Source: Bacilli bacterium (GTDB lineage Bacteria; Bacillota_I; Bacilli_A; RFN20; CAG-826). From it: a stretch of 64,000 bases of DNA. The stretch lies in assembly GCA_024687185.1 (NCBI GenBank), contig JAILEX010000073.1:41-64040 (forward strand), written 5' to 3'. The stretch's first letter is position 1. Every line of letters starts with the position of its first letter. The position numbers and the translations under genes are program-made. The notes under the pieces are model-generated. The model worked only from the letters and a program-made list of their open reading frames with translations, was not told the DNA's origin and did not search any database. Shown here in pieces: positions 15,804-41,572 of the stretch.

Positions 15804-16181
15804 ATGCCGATAACATGGTTTAGCCTAAAGGAAAAGGTGGGTACGGCCAGCTTCTATGGCACCAACATCACCTTGAACACCATCGCCTCAATCCCCTTTG
15901 CAGATGCCTATCGCGTCCAGGTGGGACTAGACGAATCGGGCAACGTCGTCATCCAACCTTTGTCCAAGGACAGGGTGATCCGCGGAGACCTAGACGAATA
16001 CGCGATCCAGACGATCGCGGTCAAGAAGACCTACTCCAGGATCTCCTCCACCCCCTTGATGAAACAGGTTGGCGAAGCCCTCGGGATCGAATTAAGCGAT
16101 TCCCCAAAGAAATACGAGACGACCTGGGATGAGAAGGAGAACATCCTCACCATCCATACCGGAAAGGAGAAAGCGAAATGA
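15804..16181 (+). CDS. Hypothetical protein, first gene of the NfeD/SPFH operon
   Basis: ATG at 15804 is preceded by a strong RBS (GAAGGAGGAAAAGAC). The ORF-track start at 15762 lacks an RBS. The stop overlaps the nfeD start (ATGA). No recognisable motif. Confidence 0.5.
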   Translation: MPITWFSLKEKVGTASFYGTNITLNTIASIPFADAYRVQVGLDESGNVVIQPLSKDRVIRGDLDEYAIQTIAVKKTYSRISSTPLMKQVGEALGIELSDSPKKYETTWDEKENILTIHTGKEKAK

Positions 16182-16627
16182 CATTCCTAGACTTTTTATG
16201 GGTCGTTTGGCTGGCGGTGTTCGTCATCGCCCTCATCATCGAGGCGTCCACAAGCGAACTCGTCTCCATCTGGTTTGCCCTAGGCGCCCTATTCGCGGTC
16301 GTGATCTCGGTCATTCCCGGCGCGGGATGGTGGATATCGCTCATCGTCTTCGCGGTCATCTCGGTGGCGACGCTATTATGTCTTAGGCCCCTTGCCAATA
16401 GGCTGCTTAAGCGCAACACCGTCAGGACCAACATCGACGAGATCATCCACAAGAAAGGCAAGATGGTCAAAGGTTATGACGAATATAACCATGGCGAAGT
16501 CAAGATCAACGGCGTGATCTGGACCGCCATCAACACGGAAGAGAAGAAGCCCCTTCCAGAAGGCACCTCCGTCGAGGTGCTCGCCGTAGACGGCAATAAG
16601 CTCGTCGTAAAGGAAATCGTAGGGTGA
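16178..16627 (+). CDS. NfeD family membrane protein
   Basis: 149 aa. Three or four N-terminal TM helices plus a C-terminal soluble beta-rich domain (GEVKINGVIWTAINTEE...VEVLAVDGNKLVVKE). Classic position immediately upstream of an SPFH gene. Confidence 0.75.
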   Translation: MTFLDFLWVVWLAVFVIALIIEASTSELVSIWFALGALFAVVISVIPGAGWWISLIVFAVISVATLLCLRPLANRLLKRNTVRTNIDEIIHKKGKMVKGYDEYNHGEVKINGVIWTAINTEEKKPLPEGTSVEVLAVDGNKLVVKEIVG

Positions 16628-16668
16628 TGCCTTCATCCCCTGGCGATTAGAAAGGAAAAACAATCAAT

Positions 16669-17610
16669 ATGGAACCCTATGTCGTAGCAATCATAGTCAT
16701 CGCGGTCATCGTCTTCGTGTTGCTCATCGTCTTCATCTCATCGATCCGCATCATCCGCCAGACGGAAAAGGCGGTCGTGGAAAGGCTAGGCAAATACCTG
16801 AAGACCTGGGACACCGGCATCCACATGCTCGTCCCGTTCGTGGACAGAGTCGCCCACAAAGTCTCCATGAAGGAGCAGGTCCACGACTTCCCACCCCAAC
16901 CCGTCATCACCAAGGACAACGTCACGATGCAAATCGACACGATCGTTTTCTTCCAGGTGACCGACCCCAAACTCTACGCCTATGGCGTGGAAAACCCGAT
17001 CGGGGCCATCGAAAACCTCTCCTCCACCACCCTTCGTAACATCATCGGCGAACTAGACCTAGACGCCACCCTTACTTCTAGGGATATCATCAACGCCAAA
17101 ATGCGTTCGATCCTAGACGAGGCGACCGACCCCTGGGGCATCAAGGTCAACCGCGTTGAGGTCAAGAACATCCTTCCCCCGAAGGACATCCGCGAAGCCA
17201 TGGAACGTCAGATGAGGGCCGAACGCGAGAAGAGGGAAAAGATCCTCCTCGCCGAAGGCCAGAGGCAATCCGCGATCTTGATCGCCGAGGGCGAAAAGGA
17301 ATCCATGATCCTTAACGCCGAGGCCAGCAAGCAAGCCAAGATCAAGGCCGCCGAGGCCGAAGCGGAATCTATCCGCAAGGTCAAGGAAGCCGAGGCCGAG
17401 GGCATCAAGATGGTCCGCGAAGCCGAAGCTAAGGGTCTGGAGATGCTAAAAGGCGCCGAGGTCGACGAAAAGGTATTGGCGTTAAAGTCCTACGAAACCC
17501 TCTCCAAGGTAAGCGAAGGACAGGCCACCAAACTCATCGTCCCCACTGACCTTACCAAGGTCACTTCCCTTGCCTCGGTCATCAAAGAGACCATCAAGGA
17601 AGATAAGTAA
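16669..17610 (+). CDS. SPFH/Band 7 (stomatin/QmcA-like) protein
   Basis: 313 aa. N-terminal TM helix. Strong resemblance to QmcA-type stomatins (VVERLGKY...LVPFVDRV, DEATDPWGIKVNRVEVKNI, AEGQRQSAILIAEGEKES). Confidence 0.9.
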   Translation: MEPYVVAIIVIAVIVFVLLIVFISSIRIIRQTEKAVVERLGKYLKTWDTGIHMLVPFVDRVAHKVSMKEQVHDFPPQPVITKDNVTMQIDTIVFFQVTDPKLYAYGVENPIGAIENLSSTTLRNIIGELDLDATLTSRDIINAKMRSILDEATDPWGIKVNRVEVKNILPPKDIREAMERQMRAEREKREKILLAEGQRQSAILIAEGEKESMILNAEASKQAKIKAAEAEAESIRKVKEAEAEGIKMVREAEAKGLEMLKGAEVDEKVLALKSYETLSKVSEGQATKLIVPTDLTKVTSLASVIKETIKEDK

Positions 17611-17638: not shown

Positions 17639-17689
17639 AACCCCGCCTTTCTCCCACATGGGGGAATGGTGGGGTTTTCCTTATTTTTT
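17639..17689 (+). terminator. Terminator after the SPFH operon
   Basis: 9-bp stem AACCCCGCC/GGTGGGGTT (one G-U pair) with a 20-nt loop, followed by the T-rich TTCCTTATTTTTT. Confidence 0.55.
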
Positions 17690-17753: not shown

Positions 17754-18935
17754 ATGCTTTTTAGAATCTACTCCGACGCCTTCAAAGGCGTTTATAAACG
17801 CATGGGCGAGGAATTCCCGCCTTCCGAGATGAAGCCTTTCGAGGCCTTTTCCTCTTTGCTTGGCGATGGCAAATACATTTGCCTTGCCTTAAAGGAAGAC
17901 GAGGAGATCAAGGGCTATTGCCTAGGCTGCCCCATAGAGGGAGGGTATTTCTACCTCGATTACCTCCATGTCTATAAAGAGAACCAGGGAAGGGGGTATG
18001 GGCAGAAGATCCTTAGGGAACTGCTTTCTTCTTTTGGCGAATCAGGCGTCTTTTTGGAAACGGAGCCCGTAGAAGAGGATGAGGACTATGATTCGAACAA
18101 AAGCAGAAGGATGAGGTTCTACGATAGATTCGACATCGCCTGCGGGGATTTCGAATACCGCTTCCCCTGCGTGGATGGGGGCAGCGTCCACCTCGTCTTG
18201 GACTTTATCCCCGGGAAAAAGACGCATGTCGACGCGGACACCATCCGCTTCGTCATCAAAAGCGCCCACGACGTAATCCATGCGGCCTTGCCCCATAAGG
18301 ATGAGACGATGGCCCTATATTTTAATGACGTCAAGGATATCCTCGCCCATAGGTTCTCCTTCACCGGGGTCGATATGGAGAAGGAAGAGGAAATAGAAAC
18401 CGTCGGCAGGCTTATCTACCATACCGATCCTTACGTCTATCCCGATTATTTCGAAGGGGATATCGAAATGGCGGCCAAAGTCGCCAAGGGGCTTTTGCTT
18501 AGGGAAAACGTCTATAACCATAAACATATCTTGGTTGGAAGGATAGACGGGGAGATCGCGGGGTATCTAACCGTTTTGGATAGCTATCCTAAGGATAACC
18601 ACGAGGAGATGAAGCGCGCCTTTTTGGACACGATCGGTTACCTGCCCCCGTTATTCGACAAGGTCATGAAAGGCTATTTCGATGAATTGTCCTCGGGTTG
18701 GGAAGGGACGCAGATCCTCTCTTTGGCCGTCCTTCCCAAATATCGCCGCCTAGGGGTGGCGAGGAAGATGCTGAATTCGCTTCCCAAAGACAAAACCTAT
18801 ACCCTTGCCTGCGTTAAGGAAAATAGGGCAGGTAGAAGGCTATATGCAAAATGCGGGTATGTCCTTAGCTATGAATATCCAGGCTACACCGACGTCCCCT
18901 GCGTCGAACTCATCAAAAGGAGGAAGGAAAAATGA
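17754..18935 (+). CDS. Tandem (double) GNAT-family N-acetyltransferase
   Basis: Two acetyl-CoA motif-A-like segments: QGRGYGQKILRELL and RRLGVARKMLNSL. The start is chosen at ATG 17754 (RBS AGGGGA 7 nt upstream), because the longer ORF-track start at 17658 lies inside the upstream terminator hairpin. The stop overlaps the next gene's start (ATGA). Confidence 0.75.
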   Translation: MLFRIYSDAFKGVYKRMGEEFPPSEMKPFEAFSSLLGDGKYICLALKEDEEIKGYCLGCPIEGGYFYLDYLHVYKENQGRGYGQKILRELLSSFGESGVFLETEPVEEDEDYDSNKSRRMRFYDRFDIACGDFEYRFPCVDGGSVHLVLDFIPGKKTHVDADTIRFVIKSAHDVIHAALPHKDETMALYFNDVKDILAHRFSFTGVDMEKEEEIETVGRLIYHTDPYVYPDYFEGDIEMAAKVAKGLLLRENVYNHKHILVGRIDGEIAGYLTVLDSYPKDNHEEMKRAFLDTIGYLPPLFDKVMKGYFDELSSGWEGTQILSLAVLPKYRRLGVARKMLNSLPKDKTYTLACVKENRAGRRLYAKCGYVLSYEYPGYTDVPCVELIKRRKEK

Positions 18936-20317
18936 TCGGCAAGATTTTCGTTTCCTATCACCATGAATCCATCGATAAGGCGATGGAAATCGTCAATAAC
19001 CTGGAGGAGATGGGGTTAAAGTGCTGGATCGCCCCGCGCGACGTCGATTTCGACTACGCGGCCGATATCGTGGACGCGATTAGCAAAAGCAGCATCATGC
19101 TCGTCCTAATCGATAAGGGCGTCTTCGAATCGGTGCATGTCCTCAACGAACTGGAGCAGGCCTATAAGTACTATAAGGAAAACACCCTTACGATCATCCC
19201 GATTTTCCTAGAGGACGTAAGGCTTAACCCATCGATGGACTATTATCTCCACCGCATCCAGTCCCTCATGGCCTTCGATAAGGGGCTCGCCCCGCTTATC
19301 GTCGAGCTCCGCGACAAAATCGTCAAGGCGCAGGAGGCCATAGAAAAGGGCTTTGCCCCAAGAAACGATGGCTTACCCCCTCTATCAAGCGATGTCCCCG
19401 TTTCGGTATCCGCAACCCAGGTCATCTACCAGGCCCCGGGGGAATTTAGCCAAAGCGAAAGGCTTTCCAATCGCTACTACGACGTCGATGACAAATACGA
19501 AAAGCGTAGGCTAAAGGCCGAAGGCGAGGTACTCCGCCGCTTCGAAAAGGGCGTCTTCGACGATTTGAGCAAGGATAGGGAACACATGAACGGGCTCATC
19601 ACCTGCTGCATGTATTCCCACGCCATCATGGACAAACTGGATTTGGCGAAGTTCGATAAGATCCTTGGCTTTTGCTATAACGAAAAGGCGGTCTATGAGG
19701 CCAATTACGAATTCAAGAACGAAAACGTGAATTTCTATCATCTCGATATGGAAGACGACGAGATGGGGGAAAGGCTAATGGAATACATGGAGAAGATGGG
19801 GATAGAGAAATTCGATTACATCGATATCACCATGGGCTTCATCGACTGGAAGAACCCCTTTGGGGTCTTGCGTACCCTAAAGAAATACATGGCCAAGGAT
19901 TGCCGCATCTTCGTCCGCGACGTCGATGACGGCGTGGTTATGTATTATCCCGACAAGGACAGGAGCTTCCGCACCTTCAAGGGCTTCTATTCCCGCGACA
20001 CCTTGGCGGGATATCGCCATTCCGGGAGAAGGATCTATAGCTATTTCAAGAAGATCAAAGCCAAAAACATCGACCTAGTGCATTCTGGAATCGACGTTTC
20101 CGATATGACCGAAGAAGAGAAGGAGAAGATGTTCTTCGCCTACTTTGGCTTCATACCAAACGACTTCAAGATCCTTGCTAGACAAGAACCGGACAACAAG
20201 GAAATCGCCGAGATCAATGAGTGGCTTGAAGAGCATTACGATAACCTCGAGGAGGAGTTCATGGATGATTCCTTCTTCTTCAACGCGGGCTATTTCATCT
20301 ACGCCATACACATGTAA
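18932..20317 (+). CDS. TIR-domain protein with a degenerate class-I methyltransferase-like C-terminal domain
   Basis: 461 aa. The N-terminal ~130 aa match the bacterial TIR_2 pattern: IFVSYHHESIDKAMEIVNNLEEMGLKCWIAPRDV...SSIMLVLIDKGVFESVHVLNELEQA, including the conserved Glu position. The C-terminal ~280 aa have Rossmann-MTase-like strand/helix motifs (FDYIDITMGFIDW, LKKYMAKDCRIFVRDVDDG), but the Gly-rich SAM loop is replaced by GLITCCMYSH. Confidence 0.8.
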   Translation: MIGKIFVSYHHESIDKAMEIVNNLEEMGLKCWIAPRDVDFDYAADIVDAISKSSIMLVLIDKGVFESVHVLNELEQAYKYYKENTLTIIPIFLEDVRLNPSMDYYLHRIQSLMAFDKGLAPLIVELRDKIVKAQEAIEKGFAPRNDGLPPLSSDVPVSVSATQVIYQAPGEFSQSERLSNRYYDVDDKYEKRRLKAEGEVLRRFEKGVFDDLSKDREHMNGLITCCMYSHAIMDKLDLAKFDKILGFCYNEKAVYEANYEFKNENVNFYHLDMEDDEMGERLMEYMEKMGIEKFDYIDITMGFIDWKNPFGVLRTLKKYMAKDCRIFVRDVDDGVVMYYPDKDRSFRTFKGFYSRDTLAGYRHSGRRIYSYFKKIKAKNIDLVHSGIDVSDMTEEEKEKMFFAYFGFIPNDFKILARQEPDNKEIAEINEWLEEHYDNLEEEFMDDSFFFNAGYFIYAIHM

Positions 20318-20355
20318 AATAGTTACGTATCATCGTTTCGTTTAGGAGATAACGT

Positions 20356-36559: not shown

Positions 36560-36616
36560 CCTTGCCCCGACTTGATCGAAAAAGCTGGAAAGGGATGTAG
36601 GGCGGGCGTTTTTATT

Positions 36617-37753
36617 ATGCAAAAAGAAAATAACCCCAAGGTCTCTGGAATCAAATTAAAGGAAGATGGAACCTATTGCATCGACTGCGTCAAATTGCTG
36701 GAAGGGAAGAGGGCGCATATATATTCCTCTGGGTTTTCTAGCCTAGAGGAAGCTATGGAAGCCTTACCGATATTGGTGAAGAAAAAGGTCGAGGCATACG
36801 AGGAAAAACAGTACAAAAACATGACTTTTGCAGTGTTTTTCAAGAAATTCGACGATTATAGATTGCTTCATGTCAGGCTTTCTTCGGTTCAATTTTCTAG
36901 AAGCGTCGTGAATACCTATTGCCAAGGCTGGATGGAAATGGAGGCAAGGAAATGCTTTTCCTATAAGCAGATGGAAACCCTATATTCTTCCTTTCTTCGC
37001 CATCAGGGCGTGCCAAGTTGGAAAAACCGCTGCTTTGGCGTTTTTAGGCAAATGGCGGAGATGGCCTTCAAGTGGAGGATCATCGATTCCTCTTCCTACC
37101 AAGATGCCATGACGATATTCGAAAACATCCCCGAGAATAGGGGCGCAAAGAAGGAAAAGGACATATGGAATAAGAAGGAGAGGGAGCGGTTCTTCTCTTG
37201 CATCGAGGATGAGACCGATTTGGTCATCTTTTCCCTTCTTTCGACTTTGGGTCTGCGCATTGGCGAATTTTCTGGCCTTACATGGGATTGCTATGACGAG
37301 AAAAAGGGCGCGATGGAGATAAAGCAGCAGCTCATCTATGAGCAAAAGGGCAGGCGGATCTTGACGGGCCAGCTTAAGACGAGGGAGAGCTACCGCGTTT
37401 GTATCCTTCCCTCCAAGATGAACCAGATGCTAAGGGAATATAAGAAGAAGACCGAGGGCAAAGGCTTTATCTTCGCCTCGGACAGATCGGGGAATGACCC
37501 TTTGTCCAAATCCAGTCTTAGGAGGAAGTTATATTTTTATATAGAAAAGGCGGGCGTGAGAAAGATAACGCCCCATTCCTTCCGCCATGCCAAGGCAACG
37601 GCGTTAATGAAGGTATGCAAGAACATGCAGGAAGTAAAGGCCGCGGCCAGGTATCTAGGCCATAGCGCCACCATGATGATCGATACCTATGGGCATTCCG
37701 AGATGAGCGCGACGGAAGCGGTATTAAGAAGATTGGAAAAGGAAGAGGCCTAA
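36617..37753 (+). CDS. Tyrosine-type site-specific recombinase/integrase (phage integrase family)
   Basis: C-terminal catalytic motifs: LGLRIGEFSGLTW (Arg), ITPHSFRHAKAT (H-x-x-R) and LGHSATMMIDTYGH (His/Tyr). N-terminal small beta-rich arm-binding-like segment (GIKLKEDGTYCIDCVKLLEGKRAHIYSSGFSSLEEA). ATG 36617 is preferred over the upstream TTG at 36572, but the start is uncertain because no clear SD is present. Confidence 0.85.
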   Translation: MQKENNPKVSGIKLKEDGTYCIDCVKLLEGKRAHIYSSGFSSLEEAMEALPILVKKKVEAYEEKQYKNMTFAVFFKKFDDYRLLHVRLSSVQFSRSVVNTYCQGWMEMEARKCFSYKQMETLYSSFLRHQGVPSWKNRCFGVFRQMAEMAFKWRIIDSSSYQDAMTIFENIPENRGAKKEKDIWNKKERERFFSCIEDETDLVIFSLLSTLGLRIGEFSGLTWDCYDEKKGAMEIKQQLIYEQKGRRILTGQLKTRESYRVCILPSKMNQMLREYKKKTEGKGFIFASDRSGNDPLSKSSLRRKLYFYIEKAGVRKITPHSFRHAKATALMKVCKNMQEVKAAARYLGHSATMMIDTYGHSEMSATEAVLRRLEKEEA

Positions 37754-37854: not shown

Positions 37855-39711
37855 ATGAAATGCAATCGATCATTACTTAGGCTCGCACCCCTTGTCCTAT
37901 CCGGGGCATTGCTCGCTTCTTGCGGCAACATCTCCGCGAAAAACGCCCCGACTAACGATGATGGTGGCGGCAACACGACCGTAAACGTCTCCGATGCCGA
38001 ATCGATTACGATTGAGGAGGCAAGCGACGATATAAGCGAAAGCTTCTCCATCCAGGGCAACGATACCTCGACCCAAGAAGACGGTTCTTCCGCTTCCTCT
38101 AACGTCGAGAATAGCGATTCCAATATCATCCGTATCACCGAATACGGCACCTATACCTTGTCGGGACAGCTAAACGGGCAGATCTACATCGAATGCGAGG
38201 AAAACGAGAACGAAGACGACGTTGTCGAACTCGATTTGAATGGGCTCTCCCTTAGCTATGGGCAGAATTCGCCGATCTATATGATCTCTGGCAACGAACT
38301 AAAGATTAAGGCGTTAAAGGGAACCGATAATTTCATCTACGATACCCGTAGCGCCTATACCGCTGACGTAGAAGGCCAAGGAAAGGGCGCGATCTATTCC
38401 AAAGCCGATACAAAATTCGTAGGCACGGGGTCGCTAACCATAGTCGGAAACTACTATAACGGTGTCCATTGCACCAAAGACGTCAAGATCAAAAACCAGA
38501 CCCTTACCGTCAAGGCGAATAACCATGGTATCAAAGGCGAGGACTCCATCAAAATGGAGACCGGAAACGTGAACGTCATTGCCTATAATGGCGATGGTCT
38601 GCATAGCGAAAACACCGATTTGTCGAGTTCCAATAAGCAGCGGGGCAACATCGAAATCTATGGCGGCACCCTTAAGGTCCTCTCTTCCGGGGATGCCCTA
38701 GATGCGGCCTATGACCTAATCGTAAGCGATGGCACCGATGACGATGGCAATGCGACTTCCCCCGTTATCTATGCCTACACCAGCAAATACGCCAATGCAC
38801 AAAATAGCGACGTATCCGCTTCCTATTCGACTTCCACCTATAGCGACACCACTACCTATAACCGTCCAGGTGGCGGAGGCACGGGCGGAAATACCGGTGG
38901 CCCAGGAGGCGGCGGCATGGGCGGAGGCGGCATGGGCGGAGGCGGCATGGGCGGAGGTTCCTCCTCCCAAAAAGCCGATGAATCCGCGAAGGGTTATAAA
39001 GCCGCGAACACCATCACCATCAGCGGTGGCACTTCCACCCTATATACCTATGACGATGGCCTCCATGCCAATTATGGCGATACCTTCGAATCCGGCGGAA
39101 AAGGGGTAGGCGACATCAATATCAGCGGTGGCAAACTCACCATCAACGCAAGCGACGATGGCGTCCACGCAGACTCTAACCTCAATATCTCCGGCGGCAC
39201 GGTCAAAGTCGAGAGCTCCTATGAAGGGCTAGAAGGCAATTTGATCAACATCAGCGGTGGCGAATCCGTCGTCTATGCTAGCGACGACGCGGTAAACGCG
39301 GCTAACTGCGGCCCCAATAAGACCCCTGCCATCAAGGTCACCGGCGGATATCTGACCGCCTGCGTACCTTCTAATGGCGATGTCGATGGCATCGATAGCA
39401 ACGGCACCTATACCCAAATCGGCGGCGTCGTGGTCGTCTGTGGGCCAAGCAGTGAGATGGCCGCGGCCATGGATTGCGATGGCACGGCCTCGGTAAGTGG
39501 CGGTACCTTAGCGGTATTTGGCTATGCCAGGGTTAGCTCGAAAAGTGTCACCACTAGCAGCAAATCCGGTTCCTATAGCGGTGGCAGCGCCTATAAACTC
39601 ACCTTCGCCAATGGCAACGTGACCACAGGCACCTTGCTTAGCGGCTATACCTATAGCGGCTGCACCACCTATAGCAACCTTGGCACGCTTTCTTCCGTTA
39701 GCAAAGCCTAA
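37855..39711 (+). CDS. Cthe_2159-family (beta-helix, carbohydrate-binding-type) lipoprotein with a Gly/Met-rich linker
   Basis: 618 aa. Lipobox ALLASCGN and RBS AAAGGAGGA. Repeated beta-helix rungs typical of the family: ITEYGTYTLSGQLNGQIYIE, GSLTIVGNYYNGVHCTKDVKI, SAKGYKAANTITISGG, SYEGLEGNLINISGGESVVYASDDAVNAA. Internal linker GGGGMGGGGMGGGGMGGG. Confidence 0.8.
   Translation: MKCNRSLLRLAPLVLSGALLASCGNISAKNAPTNDDGGGNTTVNVSDAESITIEEASDDISESFSIQGNDTSTQEDGSSASSNVENSDSNIIRITEYGTYTLSGQLNGQIYIECEENENEDDVVELDLNGLSLSYGQNSPIYMISGNELKIKALKGTDNFIYDTRSAYTADVEGQGKGAIYSKADTKFVGTGSLTIVGNYYNGVHCTKDVKIKNQTLTVKANNHGIKGEDSIKMETGNVNVIAYNGDGLHSENTDLSSSNKQRGNIEIYGGTLKVLSSGDALDAAYDLIVSDGTDDDGNATSPVIYAYTSKYANAQNSDVSASYSTSTYSDTTTYNRPGGGGTGGNTGGPGGGGMGGGGMGGGGMGGGSSSQKADESAKGYKAANTITISGGTSTLYTYDDGLHANYGDTFESGGKGVGDINISGGKLTINASDDGVHADSNLNISGGTVKVESSYEGLEGNLINISGGESVVYASDDAVNAANCGPNKTPAIKVTGGYLTACVPSNGDVDGIDSNGTYTQIGGVVVVCGPSSEMAAAMDCDGTASVSGGTLAVFGYARVSSKSVTTSSKSGSYSGGSAYKLTFANGNVTTGTLLSGYTYSGCTTYSNLGTLSSVSKA
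38911..38955 (+). repeat. Perfect 15-bp tandem repeat x3 (coding, GGMGG units)
   Basis: GGCGGCATGGGCGGA is repeated three times head-to-tail, in frame within the lipoprotein gene. Confidence 0.9.
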
Positions 39712-39805: not shown

Positions 39806-41572
39806 ATGATTGAAGAGAAAATCGAGAATTACGATATCGATACCTTTATTTGCTATCGAAACGATCACCGTGTCTGCGCAGCAACCCTAAAAGAGGCGAT
39901 GAAAATCGATAAGATGCGCTATTATGGCAGGGTTTGGTATTCCAATTCCGAAGGCGGAGGAAACTATATCGATGGCATCGACCCCCTTTTGAAATCCGCG
40001 GAAAACGTCGTCTTGGTTTTGGCAAAAGGATTTACCGACCACTTTATCAAAGACGGCGAGGTCAACGACAACGACAATAAAATCGACGTGACCGCGACCA
40101 TTAAGGAACTACAGAAAATCGAGGAACTCCGCGAAGAGAATAACATCAAGATCTATGCGGTCAACGTCGATGGCTACTTTTTTGACGAAGAGGCGATGGA
40201 TGTGCTTATTAGGGCCATCATGCATTCCCCCAACGTCAAATCAAGCGAAGAGGAAATCCGTAAGGCCTGGGCCTTCCAGGGCAGAAACCCCTTGAAGCAA
40301 GAATATACCGTCTCCGATAAGAAGATGCTTATGTTCATGGAGGAAGAAGGACTCGCCTCCGCCTTGACCTTAAAATACATTAAGCCCAAGGAGGAGATAA
40401 CCTTCCTCGACCAAAATGACTACGACAAGGCGTTCTATCAGCTTGCAAAGGAAAAGAACAACCTGACCAACATCGCCTATTTCGGCTATGCCGGGGCGGT
40501 ATTTCTTCGCGAACTATTCGGTTCCACCTTTGGATACCGCGATAGGCAAAACGAGGAATATAAGGACATCAGAATACGTATATTGCTCCGCGATCCTATC
40601 ATTGAGGCGGAAGAAGAGAGGATGCAGGAGGTCAAAAAGGGCAGACGCCCAAGGAGAAAGAGCGCCGATATCCTAAAGACCTATCAGGAGATTAGGGAAA
40701 AAAGCGGGACCATCAGGCTCGATTGCCGTTTCTATTCCCATACCCCATATCTAAAGGGCGCGATATTCTGCGACAAAAACTGGGAACCCAGGGTCGGTTT
40801 GATCAATTTCGAATCCGCCTATGGCAAAGACTATATCAAAAAGGGCGGTTCCCCCTTTAAGGGCATCGATAGCGACATGATCTATTTCAATGGGGATTTA
40901 GAATATAACACCTCGACCATCAAGGCATTGAAAACGCTGATGACCCAGTTCGAATTCGACTGGAAAATGGGCAAAGCCCTCATCGATGAGGATGAGGTCT
41001 GCTCTCCATTATCCTTAGAATTAGAGGATCCCTATTACGATAGGGTTGATAGGGAAGCTTTGGGTTTAGGAGACCGTCCCGTCCGTCATTGTGTTAGGGG
41101 AATTATCGTCAACGAAAATGGCGAGATCGCCTTGCATCACTGCCATAGGGACGATAAATACGGCGACTTCGAATACTATGAACTCCCAGGTGGCGGATAT
41201 GCCGATAGCGAAGGAAGGGAGGACGAACTCCCCTTCGATGGATTAAAAAGAGAATGTGAGGAGGAATGCGGATTTAAGATCAAGCGCCTTGCCTATCTTG
41301 GGGAAGTCAAAGACGAATATAACCTCGCCGATAGGTTCAATTACCACTATGTCTTCTTGTGTAAACTTATTGGAGAGACAAAGAAGCATTTCGAGAGTGA
41401 GGGCGATAACTATATCCTCGACACCGATTTCTATCCTTTCCATACCGCGATAAAGATGCTTAAAAAACAACATCAAGACGGTTTTGCAGGGCTTGTTAGG
41501 CAAAGGGAACTGCCCTTCCTCGAACTTGCGGAAGAAGTATACGAAAATTTCTTCGAAGAGGAAGAAAATTGA
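39806..41572 (+). CDS. Three-part fusion protein: TIR-like N-terminal domain, uncharacterised middle domain, C-terminal Nudix hydrolase
   Basis: 588 aa with RBS AAAGGGGT.
- N-terminus has a TIR-like strand/helix pattern: DTFICYRNDH...AATLKEAM...VWYS...AENVVLVLAKGF...TIKELQKIEE.
- C-terminus has a Nudix fold start (VRGIIVNENGEIAL) and a Nudix box ending LKRECEEECGF, which matches R-E-U-x-E-E-x-G-U. The upstream Glu is at the canonical 7-residue spacing, with about 4 extra residues in the Gly-proximal half.
- The middle region (~aa 200-400; IRIRILLRDP, RFYSHTPYLKGAIF) is unassigned. Confidence 0.7.
   Translation: MIEEKIENYDIDTFICYRNDHRVCAATLKEAMKIDKMRYYGRVWYSNSEGGGNYIDGIDPLLKSAENVVLVLAKGFTDHFIKDGEVNDNDNKIDVTATIKELQKIEELREENNIKIYAVNVDGYFFDEEAMDVLIRAIMHSPNVKSSEEEIRKAWAFQGRNPLKQEYTVSDKKMLMFMEEEGLASALTLKYIKPKEEITFLDQNDYDKAFYQLAKEKNNLTNIAYFGYAGAVFLRELFGSTFGYRDRQNEEYKDIRIRILLRDPIIEAEEERMQEVKKGRRPRRKSADILKTYQEIREKSGTIRLDCRFYSHTPYLKGAIFCDKNWEPRVGLINFESAYGKDYIKKGGSPFKGIDSDMIYFNGDLEYNTSTIKALKTLMTQFEFDWKMGKALIDEDEVCSPLSLELEDPYYDRVDREALGLGDRPVRHCVRGIIVNENGEIALHHCHRDDKYGDFEYYELPGGGYADSEGREDELPFDGLKRECEEECGFKIKRLAYLGEVKDEYNLADRFNYHYVFLCKLIGETKKHFESEGDNYILDTDFYPFHTAIKMLKKQHQDGFAGLVRQRELPFLELAEEVYENFFEEEEN

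Follow-up and report, generated by a model that had tools for sequence, protein, structure and literature searches.

Two adjacent genes in a 64,000-nucleotide stretch of DNA from a Bacilli bacterium (contig JAILEX010000073.1 of GenBank assembly GCA_024687185.1, hereafter the window) encode a tandem GNAT acetyltransferase (gene 1, 17754-18935, plus strand, 393 amino acids) and a TIR domain fused to a methyltransferase fold whose S-adenosylmethionine (SAM) site appears to have decayed (gene 2, 18932-20317, plus strand, 461 amino acids). The two genes represent a variant within a broader and as yet undescribed family of modules that join a TIR to a (pseudo)methyltransferase and probably act on a small molecule derived from nicotinamide adenine dinucleotide (NAD+). 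The pairing of the GNAT with the TIR-pseudo-methyltransferase is beyond chance, and in sister lineages the position occupied by the GNAT is filled by other small-molecule enzymes.

The N-terminal region of gene 2 (approximately residues 1-138; 18932-19345, plus strand) is a TIR domain, which matches Pfam TIR_2 over residues 5-101 (E 5e-14) and contains, within the stretch SVHVLNELEQA, a glutamate (Glu73) at the catalytic position, as had been recognized in an earlier reading made from the sequence alone. Glu73 is invariant in an alignment of 20 homologues, and its equivalent is also invariant in the deepest degenerate lineage described below. In alignment the residue falls on the Glu within DELEQAY of the CRISPR-associated protein Cat1, which is by sequence the closest solved relative of the domain (9mud, E 1e-11), followed by TIR-STING (6wt6, E 2e-7). 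A linker (approximately residues 139-176; 19346-19459, plus strand), predicted to be disordered from a predicted local distance difference test (pLDDT) score of <50 over residues 141-176, joins the TIR domain to the remainder of the protein and varies in both length and sequence in the homologue alignment.

The C-terminal domain of gene 2 (residues 177-461; 19460-20317, plus strand) has a class-I Rossmann methyltransferase fold and is modelled with a pLDDT mostly >90. The best Foldseek match is 3mgg (E 4.5e-11, TM-score 0.71), to which the domain is also related by profile comparison (E 7e-7), and among the top 50 Foldseek matches listed nearly all are SAM-dependent methyltransferases, many of them small-molecule enzymes. 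More distant full-length homologues (28-33% identity) give clear Pfam methyltransferase matches and retain canonical motifs. The motif I sequences of these canonical relatives (VLDLGSNNGD or ILDIGCGNGD) align with GLITCCMYSH in the window protein, while the motif-II acid at the end of strand 2, found in the canonical signature G-L/I-E/D, is lost in the corresponding G-F-C. With neither the Gly-rich loop nor the acid of motif II preserved, the window protein is predicted to be a pseudo-enzyme, and these motif I and motif II determinants are lost throughout the degenerate clade. The sequence-only reading had reported the replacement of the loop in a methyltransferase-like fold; that observation is upheld and extends to motif II. 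Fifteen residues are nevertheless invariant in canonical and degenerate members alike (R177, Y182, E190, R193, D272, F294, D295, D330, D332, D333, P340, D341, G360, R362 and R366), and the window protein keeps the family hallmarks RDVDDG (residues 329-334), YPD and GYRHSGRR. The invariance of these hallmarks despite the loss of the SAM motifs suggests that selection continues to act on some other functional surface although the cofactor site has degenerated. Thus, the earlier proposal of an inactive methyltransferase fold stands with regard to the loss of the SAM determinants; the ligand-sensing role suggested with it is possible, but a retained substrate pocket served by a swappable tailoring enzyme fits the data better.

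Gene 1 encodes two GNAT domains, as the two acetyl-CoA motifs picked out previously (QGRGYGQKI and RRLGVARKM) had indicated. The N-terminal GNAT (approximately residues 1-195) contains the motif ENQGRGYGQK(I), the motif-B sequence RFYDRF and Tyr123, and the C-terminal GNAT (approximately residues 196-393) contains YRRLGVARKM, the motif-B sequence LYAKCGY and Tyr364. GNAT models of Pfam match the protein in two places (PF00583, E 9e-18; PF13673 over residues 14-94 and PF00583/PF13508 over residues 253-370), and the AlphaFold2 model (pLDDT 92) is that of a tandem GNAT, of which one half superposes on 3ey5 (TM-score 0.80). Homologues of gene 1 (n=26) display 42-70% identity. In the 17 that were aligned, motif A and the motif-B Tyr are present in both halves and both tyrosines are invariant; in the N-terminal motif A the last glycine, Gly83, is invariant and Gln78 nearly so, while the glycine of the C-terminal motif A is variable. 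Both halves look competent. Searches of NCBIfam and PADLOC with gene 1 returned generic GNAT matches only and no toxin family. The whole protein resembles the tandem GNATs 2wpx, from the clavulanic-acid pathway, and 5kf1, a glucosamine N-acetyltransferase (Foldseek E 7e-9 to 7e-8), which likewise contain two GNAT folds in a single chain, although identity to gene 1 is only 10-13% and the domain arrangement superposes poorly (root mean square deviation ~23 Å). Mycothiol synthase, MshD, is another tandem-GNAT enzyme.

The association of the two genes was explored in a scan of 185,579 species genomes, with one genome per species, which identified 38 loci, nearly all in gut or rumen metagenome-assembled genomes of Bacilli and Clostridia, together with one Olsenella isolate. 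In every one of these loci in which motif I is degenerate, hidden Markov model scans found a GNAT immediately upstream on the same strand, encoded either as a single fused gene, like that of the window, or as two separate genes, and never lacking the C-terminal-type half. Apart from two exceptions, no GNAT accompanied a canonical motif I. Locus L030 combines a canonical motif I with a GNAT, while L013 contains a four-gene array (L013:5557-9308) comprising a canonical TIR-methyltransferase, an N-type GNAT, a C-type GNAT and a degenerate TIR-pseudo-methyltransferase. These two loci look like evolutionary intermediates; alternatively, the L013 array may be a heteromeric system. A RyR-domain protein is encoded at 3765-5543 of L013, just upstream of the array. 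Gene calls in public assemblies give the same GNAT-TIR arrangement. The pairwise identities of the GNAT and the TIR-pseudo-methyltransferase co-vary (r = 0.94), and the adjacency persists down to 32-35% protein identity, across bacterial classes and with unrelated flanks.

Partner usage was quantified in 54 cores, non-redundant at 90% identity, of which 41 are degenerate and 13 canonical. A GNAT lies directly upstream, on the same strand, in 25/41 degenerate cores compared with 1/13 canonical cores (Fisher p = 0.001, shared ancestry ignored), and is convergent and downstream in 2/41 and 0/13, respectively; the same-strand downstream GNAT of the L013 array accounts for 0/41 and 1/13. The upstream position is occupied by a methyltransferase paralogue in 6/41 degenerate cores and by an aldo/keto reductase in 3/41, and by neither in the 13 canonical cores. 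No partner was seen in 5/41 degenerate cores, four of which have <1.3 kb of upstream sequence, compared with 11/13 canonical cores. When all adjacent partner enzymes are considered the difference is 36/41 versus 2/13 (Fisher p = 3e-6, again without regard to shared ancestry). The concern raised with the sequence-only reading, that the two genes might not be neighbours in related genomes, therefore came out negative, as the GNAT and the TIR-pseudo-methyltransferase form a conserved operon-like unit in 25 non-redundant lineages.

The exchange of partners is illustrated by the loci recovered from metagenomes when the deepest degenerate lineage served as the query. In the human-gut lineage a tandem GNAT is directly upstream of the degenerate TIR fusion. 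In the rumen lineage this position is taken by a family paralogue, a canonical methyltransferase encoded on its own, and a class I/II aminotransferase is often found directly downstream. An aldo/keto reductase is directly upstream of the degenerate fusion in three different sub-lineages, and in another sub-lineage a convergent GNAT is located downstream. In a neighbour-joining tree all of the degenerate forms fall in one clade.

The family to which the C-terminal domain belongs extends beyond these loci. An exhaustive profile search with the domain identified 917 cluster representatives, of which 280 had E < 1e-30. Among ~195 sampled members there were 42 TIR fusions with a canonical motif and 56 with a degenerate motif, such that TIR fusions make up about half of the sample; the others comprised 45 standalone canonical proteins, 17 with a different N-terminal extension (including TIR domains missed by the model, such as P0107 and P0140) and 10 with a C-terminal extension. 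Distant members possess canonical motifs I-III and match Pfam Methyltransf_23/31/11/12. One canonical member, P0104, has an N-terminal cytidine/dCMP deaminase fusion, while in the three C-terminal extensions that were checked (P0197, P0198 and P0232, all canonical) the added domain is a GNAT, which is followed by a Cys-rich CPxCxGRCxCD motif. As this fused GNAT has no detectable relation to the gene-1 halves, it backs a link between GNATs and the methyltransferase family as a whole, rather than orthology with gene 1.

The pairing had been described as unfamiliar in the sequence-only reading, and it is indeed absent from PADLOC v2 and the searchable TIR literature. PADLOC v2 returned, for the two proteins, only a weak TIR-domain match, and targeted literature searches on TIR-methyltransferase and GNAT-TIR systems found nothing relevant. 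The text and supplements of a systematic survey of TIR systems make no mention of a partner that is a methyltransferase, an acetyltransferase or RyR (Yirmiya et al. 2025, bioRxiv 10.64898/2025.12.03.692087). A review of NAD-ADPr and viruses likewise does not mention the TIR-methyltransferase/GNAT architecture.

The limits of the module in the window are defined by an NfeD-SPFH operon on the 5' side and an α-amylase gene on the 3' side. The intrinsic terminator of the NfeD-SPFH operon (17639-17689, plus strand), which had been proposed previously and marks the 5' boundary, is confirmed by RNA folding (-33.4 kcal/mol, z = -4.7) and by the U-run that follows the hairpin, although a simple consensus terminator scan did not pick it up. 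A longer open reading frame for gene 1, starting at 17658, was rejected, as its start codon falls within this hairpin; the start at 17754 is judged correct because homologues begin at the same position. A sigma-70 promoter scan upstream of gene 1 found no promoter. The translational-coupling junction spans 18919-18935 on the plus strand and consists of a GGAGG (18919-18923), 8 nucleotides 5' of the gene-2 ATG, and the ATGA at 18932-18935 in which, as noted from the sequence and borne out by the coordinates of the reading frames, the start of gene 2 overlaps the stop of gene 1. The GNAT/TIR junction is similarly tight in relatives, with overlapping or few-base spacing in many loci. A gap of 38 bp (20318-20355), in which the consensus scan found no terminator-like hairpin, separates gene 2 from the amylase gene, and transcription of the pair may, in the window, run on into it. 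The amylase is a lipoprotein with CBM26 and GH13-type domains. It was rejected as part of the module as it adjoins the module in only three related loci, with variable orientation, consistent with the earlier view that it is unrelated. The NfeD-SPFH genes were similarly rejected, as they are kept in relatives without the pair. Across the whole window, which has a GC content of 50%, no Rfam family reached its gathering score, with no tRNA, rRNA or riboswitch matches.

Comparison with related genomes shows that the pair occupies a variable position. The block at 15804-17610, which encodes a small 125-amino-acid protein, NfeD and SPFH, is kept in relatives whose SPFH proteins are 90% and 82% identical, while the genes that follow SPFH differ among them. 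These are a small methyltransferase and an iron ABC transporter in L116 and L117, and a HepT/MNT toxin-antitoxin pair in L118, and an IS110 transposase is present near the block in L119. The site downstream of SPFH thus looks like a variable hotspot, and the pair is accessory, since relatives keep the SPFH block but carry other genes after it. The pair is outside a classical defence island. In a relative with 53% identity a 1102-amino-acid DUF4062 protein and three small genes without a Pfam match precede the pair on the same strand (L001:1-4807), and an LRR_5 protein follows it; this gene set is absent as a conserved unit from the other loci. Elsewhere in the window, the gene at 39806-41572 (plus strand, 588 amino acids) had been taken as a second TIR-type gene. 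Its only Pfam match is a C-terminal NUDIX domain (residues 430-554), and its N-terminus (DTFICYRND...) is weakly TIR-like, with a TIR profile score of only 3.5 bits. Genes of the tyrosine-recombinase (phage integrase) and Cthe_2159 families adjoin it on the 5' side (36572-37753 and 37855-39711), and for this reason the region may be an integrated element.

A membrane protein of ~700 amino acids, in which N-terminal transmembrane helices and a GxGxxG segment are combined with a weakly RyR-like C-terminal region containing EHxRWNAY, is encoded within the flanks of 11/54 cores and adjoins TIR-methyltransferase genes of both the canonical and the degenerate type. Examples are located at L006:8053-10182, L017:5135-7228, L020:9364-11424, L030:9303-11351, L040:12336-14420 and L101:1549-3576, and on the minus strand at L068:1461-3644. 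The protein has no match in Pfam, PADLOC or a PDB profile search. Genes encoding RyR, SLOG-like (SLOG-RyR), TIR-HD and TIR-STING proteins are also found near the module in some loci. The window itself contains no homologue of the ~700-amino-acid protein, no SLOG or Macro gene, and no RyR, TIR-HD or TIR-STING gene. In L058 and L101 the ~700-amino-acid protein is encoded in one gene row with the module; in L058 (1480-7439) this row consists of a 793-amino-acid protein similar to the ~700-amino-acid protein, a 96-amino-acid reading frame, an aldo/keto reductase, a degenerate TIR-pseudo-methyltransferase and a TIR-STING protein (CAP12 TIR and prokaryotic STING). Of the contexts found for the family, that of L058 is the most defence-like.

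These observations can be accommodated, tentatively, by a tailoring module in which the TIR domain cleaves NAD+, the pseudo-methyltransferase keeps a binding pocket, and the GNAT acetylates in place of the lost methyl transfer. The TIR domain would, through Glu73, cut NAD+ or a related nucleotide. The C-terminal domain, in which the SAM motifs are lost but an Arg/Asp-rich pocket is conserved, would hold the substrate or product characteristic of the family, or might dock a partner enzyme. The GNAT, made from the same message by coupled translation, would then use acetyl-CoA to acetylate a molecule that was ancestrally methylated; that acetylation replaces methylation is suggested by the observation that a methyltransferase paralogue, an aldo/keto reductase or an aminotransferase fills the same slot in sister lineages. 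The output may be a tailored nucleotide or metabolite, for which the ~700-amino-acid membrane protein is a candidate receiver in many relatives, in a manner similar to Thoeris signalling. In the sub-lineage of the window, which has no linked receiver, a gene located elsewhere in the genome may read the output, or consumption of NAD+ may itself be the effect. A role in conflict or stress is favoured over one in core metabolism, by a narrow margin, because the module is patchy in its distribution and resides in a variable spot. A more specific version is doubtful: the TIR domain would make an ADP-ribose-type product from NAD+, an adenosine-binding remnant of the methyltransferase fold would hold it, the partner would acetylate it in the window or methylate, reduce or transaminate it in sister lineages, and the membrane protein, through a RyR-like domain, would read the result.

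Several observations weigh against the proposal of a tailoring module with a role in conflict. Most of the 112 flanking proteins from ~30 loci are housekeeping proteins, transporters or enzymes of metabolism. They show no enrichment of known defence genes, with only scattered TIR, WYL, AriA and PDC matches in this small sample, which was assessed without a background model. Scans of IMG/VR viral contigs, phage genomes and plasmid collections found no relatives, and the GC content of the pair matches that of its flanks, without compositional anomaly. A defence-island setting was thus not seen. A receiver or effector gene is linked neither in the window nor in its three nearest full-length relatives, and the ~700-amino-acid protein aligns only weakly with a RyR-domain protein (hhalign E 0.018). 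The Fisher tests on partner linkage treat lineages of common descent as separate cases, and the GNAT fused to canonical family members is of a different subfamily, with no detectable relation to either half of gene 1. The inferred loss of SAM binding by gene 2 derives from motifs and a model.

Some of these points are consistent with a possible, though on balance less probable, role in non-immune small-molecule metabolism, in which the TIR domain is an N-glycosidase acting on a nucleotide or nucleoside, and the methyltransferase fold and its partner process the released base or sugar. Such a pathway would serve salvage, the detoxification of nucleoside-type xenobiotics or the synthesis of a niche metabolite in gut anaerobes. 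The largely metabolic and transport genes in the flanks, the lack of phage or plasmid association, the GC content and the amylase near the module in three related Bacilli loci are in keeping with this explanation, as is the nature of the partners, since aldo/keto reductases, class I/II aminotransferases, GNATs and methyltransferases are all classic metabolic enzymes; the methyltransferase family, furthermore, also occurs in standalone form (45 of the ~195 sampled) and fused to a cytidine deaminase. A metabolic function is harder to reconcile with the sparse and patchy distribution of the module (38 loci in 185,579 species genomes, from Bacilli, Clostridia and one Olsenella), its variable location, where a relative harbours a toxin-antitoxin pair, and the recurrence nearby of RyR-like membrane proteins and of SLOG-RyR, TIR-HD and TIR-STING genes. 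In addition, the TIR domain is nearest to those of the immune-type proteins Cat1 and TIR-STING, and no complete recognizable pathway is conserved around the module.

The sequence-only reading had favoured a toxin or abortive-infection module, in which an NAD+-depleting TIR is controlled by a ligand-sensing pseudo-methyltransferase and the GNAT acts on a protein, as neutralizer or second toxin. A TIR domain with a catalytic Glu and a variable C-terminal domain is indeed typical of many NADase effectors, the tight translational coupling suggests a fixed stoichiometry, and the pair is in a variable genomic spot. The GNAT toxin-antitoxin systems TacAT, AtaRT and KacAT are likewise compact operons of two genes, one of which encodes a GNAT, at such a spot. 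These systems, however, include an adjoining small DNA-binding antitoxin gene of the ribbon-helix-helix (RHH)/DUF1778 type, which the window pair lacks, and the window GNAT is not a single-domain toxin-type enzyme but a 393-amino-acid tandem protein whose partner is a 461-amino-acid TIR fusion. PADLOC matches nothing beyond the TIR domain, and no enrichment in defence islands is seen. The methyltransferase, aldo/keto reductase and aminotransferase found as partners in sister lineages are implausible as protein antidotes, and the presence of these small-molecule enzymes in the same slot makes a GNAT toxin or neutralizer unlikely, leaving the toxin module as a whole improbable. It is very improbable that the genes merely travel together in one clade through inherited synteny, without functional coupling. 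The degenerate forms do constitute a single clade, and many of the 25 GNAT-linked lineages are consequently non-independent. The adjacency, however, survives to 32-35% identity across classes with unrelated flanks and through fission and fusion of the GNAT, the genes overlap or are separated by a few bases in many loci, and the methyltransferase family is joined with GNATs of independent subfamilies, through fusion as well as through convergent adjacency.

The GNAT/TIR module bears a partial resemblance to several known systems. Like Thoeris (ThsB plus effector, types I-XI; Yirmiya et al. 2025), it contains a bacterial TIR with a catalytic Glu in a small operon, and some relatives encode next to it a multi-domain membrane protein that could act as effector. 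Unlike Thoeris, the window module has no linked effector gene and lies outside defence islands, and its TIR carries a degenerate methyltransferase fold on the same chain and is coupled to an acetyltransferase. Cat1 (CARF-TIR), TIR-STING and TIR-SAVED also combine a TIR with a second, ligand-type domain in one chain; the second domain of gene 2 keeps a conserved pocket, and a sensor that binds an activating ligand and drives assembly would be compatible with this architecture. The second domain in the window, however, is a methyltransferase fold rather than CARF, STING or SAVED, and the module has a GNAT as its constant partner instead of a cyclase or CRISPR partner. The domain shares its fold with class-I small-molecule methyltransferases (3mgg and the juvenile hormone acid, histamine and pavine N-methyltransferases) but is without their Gly-rich loop and motif-II acid. 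METTL3-METTL14 is a pair of catalytic and pseudo-methyltransferase subunits, and the occurrence of a degenerate paralogue beside an active one in the rumen lineage and in the L013 array is reminiscent of this arrangement, although the family and substrate are unrelated, the active partner in the window is an acetyltransferase, and a heterodimer is here only a prediction.

Immunity in bacteria, plants and animals depends centrally on TIR domains, which in the known bacterial systems are paired with an effector. The TIR-pseudo-methyltransferase/GNAT pair is classified among TIR-based modules, as one of real but unproven interest. In one clade, loss of the cofactor site coincides approximately with an acetyltransferase, or another small-molecule enzyme, becoming a fixed neighbour, providing a clear natural case of a pseudo-enzyme kept beside a replacement catalyst. 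If that chemistry acts on the product of the TIR domain, it would represent a new layer of signal diversification. Should the more specific version with a RyR-like receiver hold, bacteria would use enzymatic decoration to broaden their range of TIR second messengers, and ADP-ribosyl-cyclase chemistry would be linked to a RyR-type receiver domain in prokaryotes. If the module is instead metabolic, it would reveal a non-immune enzymatic role for TIR domains in gut anaerobes.

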